The notes under the pieces: generated by a model
Seen by the model: the letters and a program-made list of their open reading frames with translations, nothing else
Databases searched by the model: none
Told to the model about the DNA's origin: nothing
Shown here: positions 3,790 to 56,716 of the stretch, piece after piece
Layout: each line of letters begins with the position of its first letter
Numbering within the stretch: the first letter of the stretch is position 1
Translations under genes and position numbers: made by a program
DNA from: a virus
Taxonomy: Duplodnaviria > Heunggongvirae > Uroviricota > Caudoviricetes
DNA length: 64,000 nucleotides
Direction: 5' to 3' (one strand)
IMG/VR virus record: IMGVR_UViG_646564533_000005

Positions 3790-4292
3790 CGTAAAATATC
3801 CTCTATACTGGTAAGTCCTTCATTATTTAGCCAGATCATGGCGTCATCCGGCAACTTGCTGTCTGGTTTGGCGTTTTTGAGAGAGGAACTCAGTCGCTTA
3901 ATCCACATTGTCACCTCAGTAATGCGCCTGTCTTTGCCTTCCAGCTCAACACGCAGCTTCCCTACCGTTAGCGCAATTTCCTCGCTCTCTTGGTCGCGTG
4001 ATTTGATGTATTGCTGGTTTCTTTCCCGTTCATCCAGCAGTGCCAAGACGGTAGCAGGATTGGCTGCGGCGATGAATTCAGCATTGGCCTGCTGTTCCAT
4101 TTGGAAATCTTCATCGAAACCGCTTTCTGGATGCGCTCCTTCAATTCTGCAAATAGGAATATATCCAGCAACTTCACGATGAATTAGCGCATCATCACCA
4201 TCAAATCGGCTCTCTCCATATTCGAGCGACCGCTCACCACACGTTGCTTTTTCTGCCGCCTCACGCAGTGCCTGAGAGTTAATTTCGCTCAC
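3786..4292 (-). CDS. Ead/Ea22-like prophage protein (tentative)
   Basis: 168-aa ORF with acidic N-terminus and coiled-coil C-terminus; 4-nt overlap with the downstream gene. Confidence 0.45.
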   Translation of the reverse strand: MSEINSQALREAAEKATCGERSLEYGESRFDGDDALIHREVAGYIPICRIEGAHPESGFDEDFQMEQQANAEFIAAANPATVLALLDERERNQQYIKSRDQESEEIALTVGKLRVELEGKDRRITEVTMWIKRLSSSLKNAKPDSKLPDDAMIWLNNEGLTSIEDILR

Positions 4293-53572: not shown

Positions 53573-54094
53573 TTGAAAGCGCAATTAATTTATCCTGAAT
53601 ATGATCAAGTCATTGTTTCAAGAGAACTTGAGAAAGCAGAGCAAGATATTGAATCATCGAAAGATATATTGAAAGGTATTGTTGATGCACTTGATGATAA
53701 GAAGCAATTATTAAAAGAGTTAAGTGATGAATTATATTCAATCAGTGACAGGGAAAAATACTTATCATTACTCATTGAAAGATTTAGTCTTCTTAAAGAC
53801 CAATACTTTATAGATCTACAAAGAATAGATGTTGTATCACAGGCGAATTTCTATTTAAATAATTTTGCAGATATTTATTGTGAGTTCTGTAATACACCGC
53901 AAAAAAAAGAAAATGAAATATCATATGATGATTGTTTTTTGTCGTGTAATGCAGAAAAATTGAAAATCAAAAGCCAGCTGAAAGGATTAATTGAATCAAT
54001 CGGATCTAATGTTCGCGAACATGAATTAATTATGTTAAGAAAAAATGATGTTAATGAAATTTATCAAGCAGAAAAAGTGATTTTAAGACGTTAG
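53573..54094 (+). CDS. coiled-coil segment (probable ATPase arm), same frame as the preceding fragment
   Basis: heptad-rich Lys/Glu sequence; TTG start without SD; same frame as 53363..53551. Confidence 0.4.
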   Translation: MKAQLIYPEYDQVIVSRELEKAEQDIESSKDILKGIVDALDDKKQLLKELSDELYSISDREKYLSLLIERFSLLKDQYFIDLQRIDVVSQANFYLNNFADIYCEFCNTPQKKENEISYDDCFLSCNAEKLKIKSQLKGLIESIGSNVREHELIMLRKNDVNEIYQAEKVILRR

Positions 54095-54161
54095 AAGATA
54101 AAAATATAAAACAATACATTCATCTCTTGAATCACTTTATGAATATAAAGACAATCTTTTA

Positions 54162-54728
54162 ATGGATCACACAAAACATAGCATTCTATCCTCATTACAA
54201 GATAAAGAAGATGATGTTGACGAACTTAAATACTCCGCCGAGGACTTTGACTCCTTAACAGTAGCTGATTTGTATGATATAGAAATAGCGATGCAAGACT
54301 TTTTGAATGATATAAATTTTGAAAATTCTAAAGATAACAAAGTGCGATTTGACGAAGATACATATGACTTTAATATCAATGGGAAACGCCGAGGAATGTT
54401 TGGTAAAGGTACCCGTGCAGTAATGCATGCTATATTTACCATTTGCTTTGCGGAATTTTTATCAAGAAAAGGGAATCCATTCATTGGATTTGTTGTGCTT
54501 GATAGTCCATTAGTGACGCACTTTGATAAAGATAGAGGGGTTTCTCTATCGGATGTTAATAGCGTCAGTCTCAGTGATTCATTTTATCACGCATTAATCA
54601 AAAGGGACTATAATTTCCAGATTGTAATTCTTGAGAATAAAGGTCCGACGTTCCAAATAAAAATTAATGATGCAAATAAAATCCATAACTTAAATAAGAA
54701 TGGAAGCTCTGGTTTTTATCCTGTTTAA
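54162..54728 (+). CDS. ABC ATPase C-terminal head-like fragment (signature-like and Walker B-like motifs)
   Basis: GMFGKGTRAVMHAIF followed by hydrophobic strand FIGFVVLDSP and THFD; no SD before the ATG. Confidence 0.4.
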   Translation: MDHTKHSILSSLQDKEDDVDELKYSAEDFDSLTVADLYDIEIAMQDFLNDINFENSKDNKVRFDEDTYDFNINGKRRGMFGKGTRAVMHAIFTICFAEFLSRKGNPFIGFVVLDSPLVTHFDKDRGVSLSDVNSVSLSDSFYHALIKRDYNFQIVILENKGPTFQIKINDANKIHNLNKNGSSGFYPV

Positions 54729-55137
54729 TACATTAAAAATATAACTGCTAATTGGGGTGCTCGAAATTATATTTCGTTTCGAGCGCTCAGTTCATTTCTA
54801 AATAATTTGCAAAATTATTTTGGGTACTTTCGCCTCTACACTTCCTTCGGGTGGTTCCACAATAATGGATCTCACCGGCGTTTGATATTTTATAATCTAA
54901 CCCCTTAGCGCGCGCAGCCCCCCACGCCTGCCCGCTTCGCTTAACAGACTGGTTTTCATGCATTCCGCAAATCGTCTCAGAAGCCACCACACAAGGGCTT
55001 TCGCGTCAAAAATGGTGCATGAGAATCATGCGTTTTCATGCGCTATAGACATGCACTCATGCGCTCTCAGGCCAGCCAGGGAAAAGGCGTAAAAAATCCC
55101 AGTACTGGACCGGGATTACGTGGGCTTTTTTTGCTAA

Positions 55138-55410
55138 TCAGACAGGAATTTGCTGACGGCTTGACAGCTTTGACGCGGAGCCATAGCGATTGAGAGTTTG
55201 CTGTTGTTTTTCCGGCATTTGTGCTTTCTCTGATTCCTGTTCATTGCGCCGGGGCTTCATGATTATCGTATCCACACTTTCCAGTGCGGTAAATGTGTAG
55301 GAACATTCAAGATTCTGGCACTGATACCATGAGCGTTTAACCGATGGTGCTTCATAGGCGGAGGTTCTGGCGTGTGCCGTCGTACCGCATTCGGGACATT
55401 TAAGTGCCAT
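55138..55410 (-). CDS. Ogr/Delta-family zinc-finger late-gene activator
   Basis: CPECGTTAHARTS...YQCQNLECSYTF matches the Ogr/Delta C2C2 zinc-finger pattern. Confidence 0.8.
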   Translation of the reverse strand: MALKCPECGTTAHARTSAYEAPSVKRSWYQCQNLECSYTFTALESVDTIIMKPRRNEQESEKAQMPEKQQQTLNRYGSASKLSSRQQIPV

Positions 55411-55415
55411 TAATA

Positions 55416-55967
55416 TTACTCCTGCATGCCGTTAATGTAATCCAGACGTTGCTGAAAGCGCAGTTGTTGTGCAGGGGTGTAAGAGCTCTGGCAATCACGA
55501 ACCATCATGGGGTCAGGCATCACACCGGATTCATCCAGAATCATACGATAATCCCCGGCAATTTCAGGCGGTGTTATTGCCAGCTGGCGAACCAGAGCAT
55601 TGCGTAATATACGGGACGCAACGTCAACCCCTCCGCGCCCCTTCAGGAACGGAGCCAGTGCAGATGTCAGGGCTGCTCCATTCGCCTGCATAAAATTGCT
55701 GAGAGCGTCTTCTGTGCAGGCCTCCATCAGTTGATGCTGCGAGTAAATGCATTCGCGCGCAGCACAGTTAATTTGCCATTTCAGCACATCCAGATGTTCC
55801 CGCTGTAATTCGAGCTGTCGAGCATAATCTGCTGGTTTTTCCATGGCAGTGAGGAGTGATTCTATCTGTTGTTCAACGGCTTTTCGGCTCTCACTATGTC
55901 CAGCCCACAGAATACGGGCATTTCTAAAACTGATAAGCGCTTGGTCTGGAGTGACTCGGGCCATCAT
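55416..55967 (-). CDS. Psu-like (polarity suppression/capsid decoration) protein
   Basis: segment ...FMQANGAALTSALAPFL... resembles P4 Psu as recalled; position in the late operon. Confidence 0.55.
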   Translation of the reverse strand: MMARVTPDQALISFRNARILWAGHSESRKAVEQQIESLLTAMEKPADYARQLELQREHLDVLKWQINCAARECIYSQHQLMEACTEDALSNFMQANGAALTSALAPFLKGRGGVDVASRILRNALVRQLAITPPEIAGDYRMILDESGVMPDPMMVRDCQSSYTPAQQLRFQQRLDYINGMQE

Positions 55968-56716
55968 ACTGCTTTCTCCTTCTCAGCACGTTCCTGACGA
56001 ACCTTCATTTTATGCATAGCTGCTGGAGAGAGTTTATTACTGAAATCCAGACGGGCCGCATAATCCGGGGCAACTCCCGCCAGTTTAAACACGGGGTCCT
56101 GTTCGGGCATCGCATCGTTAGTCAGAGCCGGTCTGGTGATATGTTTATGAATAAAATCTTTCAGCAGTGTGTCCGGGTCATTAACTGAATGCACCACACC
56201 GACAACTGCGCTGGCTTCCCTGCCCATTGTTGATTTGAGCAGGCTTAGTGTCTGGATTAGTGCTTTTCCATGCGACTGCATAAAATCTTCCCAGATTTGT
56301 TTTGCGCGAATACCCACAAGGGTGTCGTGCGCGTGGATATACTTTCCGGCTAATTCCGCAGCCTCCTGTGGCAAAAGTGCATTTTCGCTTTCCTGAGCCG
56401 CCAGCAGCTCATCAAAATCCTCAAGCGTTTCTCGTCCCAGCGCAATTTCCGTGCGCAGTTTTTTCATTTCCTTTGAGACTACGCCCTGACTTTCACGAAA
56501 TAGCGTGCGCCACTCCTCATTCAGGGCGTTCGTCGTGGCTTCCATTTCAGCGCGGCGCTGGCGGATTGTCGCAATATTATCCGCTGCCGCTTTTTGCTGA
56601 CGACGTGCTTCAAGCCATGCAGATTTGGTGGCATTCACTTTCTCAAGCGCCTGTTGCGTCGAAACAGGGATAGAAATTTCAACGATCGGGTTATTGTTCT
56701 GTTCTGGGATTGTCAT
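55964..56716 (-). CDS. Sid-like external scaffold/size-determination protein (tentative)
   Basis: 250-aa coiled-coil-rich protein at the head of the psu/ogr operon. Confidence 0.4.
   Translation of the reverse strand: MTIPEQNNNPIVEISIPVSTQQALEKVNATKSAWLEARRQQKAAADNIATIRQRRAEMEATTNALNEEWRTLFRESQGVVSKEMKKLRTEIALGRETLEDFDELLAAQESENALLPQEAAELAGKYIHAHDTLVGIRAKQIWEDFMQSHGKALIQTLSLLKSTMGREASAVVGVVHSVNDPDTLLKDFIHKHITRPALTNDAMPEQDPVFKLAGVAPDYAARLDFSNKLSPAAMHKMKVRQERAEKEKAV

Follow-up and report, generated by a model that had tools for sequence, protein, structure and literature searches.

A probable cos site with a variant core in a P4-like satellite of Escherichia coli O55 and O157

An apparently intact P4-like satellite of E. 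coli O55/O157, located near thrW, carries between its late operon and its integrase-side hotspot a 155-bp region that is almost certainly homologous to the cos sites of P2-family phages and that, judging from its sequence and conservation, probably serves as a working packaging site. The region aligns, module by module, with Fels-2-like helper phages and with satellites that have a canonical core. Compared with the canonical form, its own core shows a duplication of AAGCG (+5) and has 14 nt between the two nick contexts instead of 19 (-5). These two changes cancel, so that the distance between the proximal box and the right flank remains 48 nt. For the window itself (the whole 64,000-nt stretch of DNA that was analysed) the result is an ordinary one, a satellite's cos, just as the initial annotation had guessed.

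The DNA of the window is 100% identical to that of E. coli 2013C-4465 and of O55:H7 strains, and 99.9% identical to that of O157:H7 strains. Integrase, primase, psu, sid and ogr genes are all intact in its satellite. The Pfam calls for the late operon (sid/psu/ogr, 55138..56716, minus strand) match the RefSeq annotation of identical DNA, which also lists an AlpA-like HTH protein, an Icd-like protein and DUF5375 further in the satellite; an alpha primase-helicase with primase/D5 domains is encoded on the plus strand. The element thus has the core gene list of P4-like satellites (PMC8628076), i.e. psu, sid, delta/ogr, alpha primase-helicase and integrase, together with a cos between the late operon and the integrase-side hotspot. 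By analogy with P4, the packaged genome would have the part comprising integrase, cargo and hairpin (50267..54788) at its left. In the O157 Sakai strain the P4-like prophage is Sp2, which carries an ogr homologue (PMC2669165), and we infer that the satellite of the window, which carries one too, is its equivalent.

Several observations concern the surroundings of the satellite and its cargo. In O157:H7 PV15-279 (L001, 3977-6170, compared with window 50267-51868) the satellite integrase is truncated by the insertion of IS1203, of the IS3 family, and the first hotspot gene is frameshifted, while the version in the window, as in 2013C-4465 and O55:H7, has an intact integrase. Upstream of this integrase, at about 46880-49640 of the window (from L150, 179-2937), a gene for a type III effector of the NleB family is accompanied by a partial integrase and by a pseudogene of type III secretion; together they have the appearance of another element, now degraded, lying in tandem near thrW. 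The satellite hotspot encodes, at 51841-53388 on the plus strand, an ABC-three-component (ABC-3C) protein, a middle component 2 and an AAA ATPase, and a P2-like prophage of O157:H7 SS17 (L149, 1-2906) has an ABC-3C set (middle component 4 and AAA ATPase) adjoining its own cos; related defence families are therefore found at both cos-adjacent hotspots in the same lineage.

The initial annotation had singled out a string within 54880-54960, GGCGTGGGGGGCTGCGCGC, as starting like the P2/186 cohesive end and then diverging. The string is indeed present, in a single copy at 54910..54928 on the minus strand, and allowing up to three mismatches it has no second match in the window, where 0.02 are expected from dinucleotide shuffles. 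A search for GGCGWGGCGGGG with one mismatch gave no match at the site, with 0.58 expected by chance. Since the resemblance of the start of the end to P2/186 is insignificant alone, the wider context was tested, using an nhmmer profile built on 50 distinct cos cores of the P2 family (helper, P2 and P4), each about 63 nt long and most of them taken from 80 portal-anchored IMG/VR loci. In the 64 kb this profile had a single match, 54962..54907 on the minus strand, which is significant (E = 3.7e-7, 26.7 bits), the next-best match in the window having an E-value of 1.2. Circularised cos junctions of P4, P2, Fels-2, Yersinia phage MLG42 and an E. coli P2-like phage-plasmid record could be aligned with the region and have in common TGCAT(G/T)AAAACC, AAGCGGGC(A/G)GGCG and CGCGCGC. 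When 751 nt around the site were compared by BLAST with 50,697 phage records there was no match at E <= 1e-5, and with a short query and a relaxed E-value matches to P2-family cos sites were recovered.

The idea of a cos-like site of the satellite therefore holds, in that the region can be aligned to the cos junctions of P4, P2 and Fels-2 and is the sole profile match in the window; the alignment with P2 and P4 cos regions that had been proposed as a check succeeds over box, nick context and flank. The divergence that had been noticed after the first bases is also real, and it is structured, consisting of the compensated +5/-5 change common to a clade of satellites. The position relative to psu, described as that of P4, was borne out as well: the site lies between late operon and hotspot, 210 nt downstream of the ogr/delta stop, and the cos of P4 lies 164 nt after psu. 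Such a placement of cos in P4-like satellites is described in PMC9122126 and PMC8628076.

The modules of the region are listed in Table 1. Those shared with Fels-2-like helpers are a distal block of GCATG repeats, the box TGCATGAAAACC, and the left nick context AAGCGGGCA^GGCG followed by the CGCGCGC flank. The distal block is the only place in the 64 kb with at least four GCATG/CATGC per 160 nt, against a background mean of 0.35; the block at 55062..55017 has five copies of the GCATG/TGCAT repeats, while the mean for helpers is 4.0 per 160 nt and P4 has 4. A repeat cluster about 80 nt before the box, a descriptive feature of our own and not one taken from the literature, is thus present. The distal core, TGCATG-N8-GCATGAAAACGCATGAT, is near-identical in helpers (e.g. 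L100 and L047), and the distance from the start of the distal block to the proximal box is 79 nt in 44/44 satellites vs 81 nt in 65/65 helpers. TGCAT triplets of P2 and P4 are analogous to this block. The box fits TGCAT(T/G)AAAACC exactly and lies upstream of the nick context, and the motif occurs in all sequences compared, namely the window, its relatives, P4, P2, Fels-2, Yersinia MLG42 and the E. coli P2-like phage-plasmid record. Distal repeats and box are candidate binding sites for the small terminase subunit. An ORF of 67 aa with a GTG start (window 54787-54990, minus strand) overlaps the core; as conservation among relatives breaks down within it, a real gene is very unlikely.

Table 1. 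Features of the satellite, modules of its cos region and candidate cohesive ends (window coordinates)
Feature	Position	Strand	Length	Basis or remark
Integrase	50267..51448	+		Pfam integrase domains; annotation of 100% identical 2013C-4465
Hotspot cargo including ABC-three-component-system genes	51452..54728	+		annotation of 100% identical 2013C-4465
Terminator-like hairpin after hotspot cargo	54755..54788	+		terminator scan
Variable hotspot cargo DNA, unrelated among satellites	from 54907	-		conservation drop
Whole cos region (distal block, spacer, box, nick-site core, right flank)	54908..55062	-	155 bp	module-by-module alignment
Right flank CGCGCGC, end of conserved region	54914..54908	-		CGCGCGC or TGCGCGC in helpers
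G-rich core GGCGTGGGGGGCTG	54928..54915	-	14 nt	between both conserved nick contexts
Left nick context AAGCG-AAGCG-GGCA	54942..54929	-		second AAGCG (54937..54933) is the duplication relative to helper AAGCGGGCA^GGCG
Spacer AGTCTGTT	54950..54943	-		
Proximal box TGCATGAAAACC	54962..54951	-		fits TGCAT(G/T)AAAACC; start of nhmmer alignment
Clade-specific sequence	55016..54963	-	54 nt	
Distal repeat block GCATGagTGCATGtctatagcGCATGaaaacGCATGattctCATGC	55062..55017	-		four direct GCATG copies and one inverted
ogr/delta	55410..55138	-		Pfam Ogr_Delta, 1e-16; ends upstream of cos
psu	55967..55416	-		Pfam Psu, 4.8e-42
sid	56716..55964	-		Pfam Psu-like, 7e-10
Candidate end GGGCAGGCGTGGGGGGCTG	54933..54915		19 nt	nicks by distance from box (gap-free register)
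Candidate end GGCGTGGGGGGCTG	54928..54915		14 nt	nicks by both sequence contexts
Candidate end GGCGTGGGGGGC	54928..54917		12 nt	right context taken as P2-like ^TGCGCGC
Candidate end GGCGTGGGGGGCTGCGCGC (initial annotation)	54928..54910		19 nt	left context and fixed 19-nt stagger

In the canonical layout the box is followed by 17 nt ending in AAGCGGGC(A/G), a 19-nt end and (C/T)GCGCGC, the end being GGCGAGGCGGGGAAAGCAC in P2 and P4 and GGCGTGGCGGGG[A/C]TACGAG in Fels-2-like phages, with other 3' halves in other genera. In the window, the interval between GGC(A/G)^ and ^YGCGCGS, which would hold a 19-nt end made of GGCGWGGCGGGG and 7 nt, is 14 nt long, and the nhmmer alignment places a 5-nt insertion at the left nick context and deletions of 1 and 4 nt in the core. 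Counted from the first base of the box up to the right flank, the distance is 12 + 8 + 14 + 14 = 48 nt in the window, and 12 + 17 + 19 = 48 nt in P2, P4 and Fels-2-like phages. As this distance is unchanged, a gap-free alignment is possible too, with 11/19 identities to the P4 end. The AAGCG duplication is present in all variant satellites seen. Relatives have the core GGCG[G/T]G[C/G]GGGGCTG; most of them have GTGC or GGGC, and the GTGG allele of the window recurs with other cargos (L037, L130, L131, L162 and L257), and is therefore a shared polymorphism.

Given that the core is a derived, satellite-specific form, the cohesive end is probably not the canonical one. Among the candidates in Table 1, the 19-nt end placed by distance from the box is the one that we would put forward, and that tentatively; after it comes the 14-nt end defined by both sequence contexts, which is a possible reading. 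The 19-mer of the initial annotation would be an unlikely end, and the 12-nt candidate a doubtful one, as would any end other than these four. A conservation break directly after CTG was considered as a mark of the right nick and rejected, the break following the 7-nt flank, as it does in helpers. A metagenome contig of 6078 nt (L310, OGHK01005189.1) stops exactly at ...GGCGTGCGGGGCTG, which is the predicted right edge of the 14-nt and of the gap-free 19-nt candidates; this could be a real end or an assembly branch point.

The variant is widespread. Of 5426 complete E. coli genomes, about 846 carry its arm with at least 80% query coverage, compared with 1221 for the P4-type arm and about 1250 for the Fels-2-type helper cos. 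All 15 IMG/VR loci anchored on Psu alone carry the variant core, and among the 120 matches listed for species-level genomes there are at least eight variant sites (in Citrobacter, Shigella, Scandinavium, Pseudocitrobacter and others), all eight with ogr, sid or psu upstream and none in a helper context. Its occurrence across several genera and cargo types indicates continued horizontal spread. The two length changes hardly ever part: the duplication combined with a full core was not found in IMG/VR, and occurred once among 64 metagenome hits. This exception (L294, metagenome contig ERZ781269.53, about 4163-4250) has the arm of the clade, the AAGCG duplication and a full-length helper-like core of 20 nt, GGCGTGGCGGGGGCTACGAG, and is an intermediate or a recombinant, the sole one among those hits.

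Conservation was compared in 35 distinct satellites, which have many different cargos and a Psu about 86-89% identical to that of the window. Mean pairwise identity in the cos region is 0.80-0.99, with 0.88 in the distal block and 0.80 in the stretch from block to box, and ogr gives 0.81, 0.84 and 0.65 at codon positions 1, 2 and 3, respectively. The 7-nt right flank is more polymorphic (0.74), and beyond 54907 identity falls to 0.35 and then to 0.25. Box and core had partly served to retrieve these loci; the core was therefore checked separately in 51 distinct metagenomic satellites retrieved without it, and there it is at least 90% conserved through GGGGCTG. The arm, which played no role in retrieval, is about as conserved (0.80-0.88) as ogr codon positions 1-2 (0.81-0.84) and more so than position 3. 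Conservation and the coupling of the two indels argue for purifying selection on what would be a working site, and for a constraint on its spacing. The species-level scan also contained a non-canonical site at position 2845 of another locus (L235), in which box and 17 nt are followed by GGCAGGCGAAGCGGAGCTATGATCGCAC. Relative to the canonical arrangement its nick context is displaced by 4 nt, and its core diverges; neither ogr nor psu nor a portal gene was detected in that locus.

A helper with the matching core was not found among the 78 portal-linked IMG/VR loci or among the species-level matches listed. Of the portal-anchored P2-like IMG/VR loci with a recognisable cos, 77/78 have the canonical 19-nt core, the exception being a satellite with a portal remnant, and an exact-pattern scan of IMG/VR for the variant core returned satellite-type flanks only. 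In the species-level scan, the matches listed include the canonical core in at least 42 helper and at least 13 satellite contexts; the core is 19 nt long in 42/42 of these helper loci, with rare one-base variants (e.g. L219). In O157 SS17, the cos of the P2-like prophage is of the P2 type. Since the helpers sampled lack the variant core, a helper terminase would need to tolerate a change of 5 nt in the spacing of the nick contexts. Some differences in the core are tolerated by P2-family terminases: phage 186, whose end differs at two positions, is a helper of P4. A 5-nt spacing change would be a larger demand. Other P2-like phages are able to mobilise P4 (PMC11806420), and the retronphage phiR73 is known to be transferred with P2 as helper (PMC8628076, citing Inouye 1991). 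A link between the clade and phiR73 is unproven, as the homologues of the retron reverse transcriptase of one clade member (ESY003) are named only "retron St85 family", with no Ec73. Among P2-family phages, those of the Fels-2/PSP3 type have the distal block most similar to that of the satellite, which makes them the most likely type of helper.

In several loci (E. coli MDK6L1, L008, 20001-22471; also L126/L043 and L257) the satellite cos is followed by a DUF4062 cargo gene and then by a P2-type portal gene on the opposite strand. This arrangement resembles a helper left end (cos, hotspot, Q), and the portal DNA is about 82-87% identical to that of Fels-2-like phages, which suggests satellite-helper recombination at or near cos. 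When the cos-portal segment of MDK6L1 was compared with helpers, there was homology in the portal only, and no informative junction at cos.

Explanations other than a working cos were considered as well. One is that a G+C-rich string unrelated to cos resembles one by chance, and the first 7-12 nt alone are indeed insignificant; however, the profile match is single and has E = 3.7e-7, and the multi-module architecture and its position are conserved in hundreds of genomes, so that we regard this explanation as refuted and give it a negligible probability. Alternatively, the likeness to cos may be ancestral only, the block being kept for some other role such as termination of the late operon, regulation of the hotspot or recombination of cargo. 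There is a terminator-like hairpin after ogr, a weak hairpin inside the GCATG block, and a coincidence between the hotspot boundary and the end of the conserved block. Nevertheless, the best-conserved parts are the modules shared with helpers (box, distal block and nick context), not the terminator region (identity 0.78 in the 35 satellites), Rfam and promoter scans of the region gave no family and no promoter-like site, and cargo exchange at cos is itself considered to depend on cos cleavage (PMC9122126). We consider such a role quite improbable.

A more serious contender, albeit still an unlikely one, is that the site is a decayed relic of cos, in which the +5/-5 change is damage that abolishes cleavage and the clade is a defence island that is inherited vertically or mobilised in some other way. 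The core does not have the 19-nt spacing of every helper sampled and of at least 13 canonical satellites among the matches listed, and the right flank is polymorphic in satellites, less conserved than in helpers. Moreover, Sakai Sp2 has not been seen to circularise, replicate or be packaged, and the P2-like Sp13 of Sakai is itself defective, lacking most morphogenetic genes (PMC2669165). On the other hand, one would expect a dead site to drift, whereas this variant is found in several genera and with many cargo types, the 155-bp region exceeds the third codon positions of ogr in conservation across diverged Psu proteins and cargos, and its two indels compensate exactly and are almost never separate. 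We therefore favour a packaging site that is in use.

If the region does work as a cos, a P2-family helper terminase would bind it and make two staggered nicks, and the satellite genome would be packaged with cohesive ends. On the side of psu and ogr, the small subunit may bind both the distal GCATG repeats and the TGCATGAAAACC box; the large subunit would then nick the top strand in or beside AAGCGAAGCGGGCA^GGCG and the bottom strand beside CTG^CGCGCGC, and, as in P4, the left end would come from the hotspot side and the right end from the ogr side. We infer all four of these steps. A further proposal, which we put forward with reserve since it may well be wrong, is that a large enterobacterial clade of P4-like satellites possesses a cos core of its own, with an end that differs from that of every helper and is possibly 12-14 nt long instead of 19; the helper terminase would still cut this core, given that it keeps the binding modules and the distance from box to flank. 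Were this proposal true, satellite ends could not anneal with those of helpers, or competition with the helper for packaging would be tuned, and the placement of nicks by distance or context would be more flexible than the invariant cores of helpers suggest.

The cos is the only DNA that a satellite and its helper must share, and it decides which helpers mobilise which satellites, and hence the adjoining defence systems, effectors and other cargo. Its anatomy is now defined for a satellite clade present in about one sixth of complete E. coli genomes, including O157:H7 and O55:H7, with exact borders for locating the hotspot cargo in this variant-cos clade. In addition, a compensated core change restricted to satellites makes two questions testable: whether terminase cuts by sequence context or by distance, and whether the resulting ends are compatible with those of helpers.

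Compared with P4 itself (NC_001609 junction, end GGCGAGGCGGGGAAAGCAC), the site occupies the same place, downstream of the late operon and adjoining the integrase-side hotspot, and shares with it the proximal box (TGCATTAAAACC in P4 vs TGCATGAAAACC in the window), the 48 nt from box to CGCGCGC, a cluster of TGCAT(G) repeats upstream and the AAGCGGGC(G/A)GGCG nick context. In contrast, the core of P4 is the same as that of P2, whereas that of the window agrees at 11/19 positions without gaps or is 5 nt shorter in the best local register; there is no alignable DNA outside box and core, and the late genes are ordered sid-psu-ogr with a single-domain Ogr/Delta of 90 aa, rather than sid-delta-psu with a delta of 166 aa. 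Closest overall are helpers of the Fels-2/PSP3 type, with GGCGTGGCGGGG[A/C]TACGAG and CGCGCGC, whose box is identical, to which GCGGGCAGGCGTGG is an exact 14-nt match, and which share the CGCGCGC flank, a near-identical distal block (TGCATGTCTATGCTGCATGAAAACGCATGAT) and an almost equal spacing from block to box. Unlike the satellite, with its AAGCG duplication and its loss of 1 + 4 nt, these helpers have an essentially invariant 19-nt core, and they have a hairpin terminator between block and box that the satellite lacks. P4-like satellites with canonical cores from Pantoea, Enterobacter and Raoultella/Klebsiella (L176, L205, L152 and L203) have the same ogr/sid/psu upstream, the same block and the same box, but their cores are of helper type, either GGCGTGGCGGGGCTACGAG or the P2-type GGCGAGGCGGGGAAAGCAC. 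As satellites with helper-type cores exist, the variant in the window is a form that was derived among satellites and does not characterise them in general.

A literature search for cos variants in P4-like satellites found no description of one, the nearest report being a meeting report in which P2/P4 shared sequences are under study by others (PMC11806420). That cos adjoins the hotspot in P4-like satellites and P2-like phages has already been published (PMC8628076; PMC13586616; PMC9122126). The 55-bp cos core shared by P2 and P4 goes back to Ziermann & Calendar 1990, as cited in these papers and in PMC5694545. In the passages searched of Rousset et al. 2022 (PMC9122126), cos is treated as a shared core signal, and no satellite-specific core variant was found described. 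The window has the same hotspot layout as is given there, with integrase, defence cargo, cos and late operon, and its conservation ends at the cos flank. The site thus belongs to a known kind of element, the cos of P4-like satellites, and apparently represents an undescribed variant of its core.
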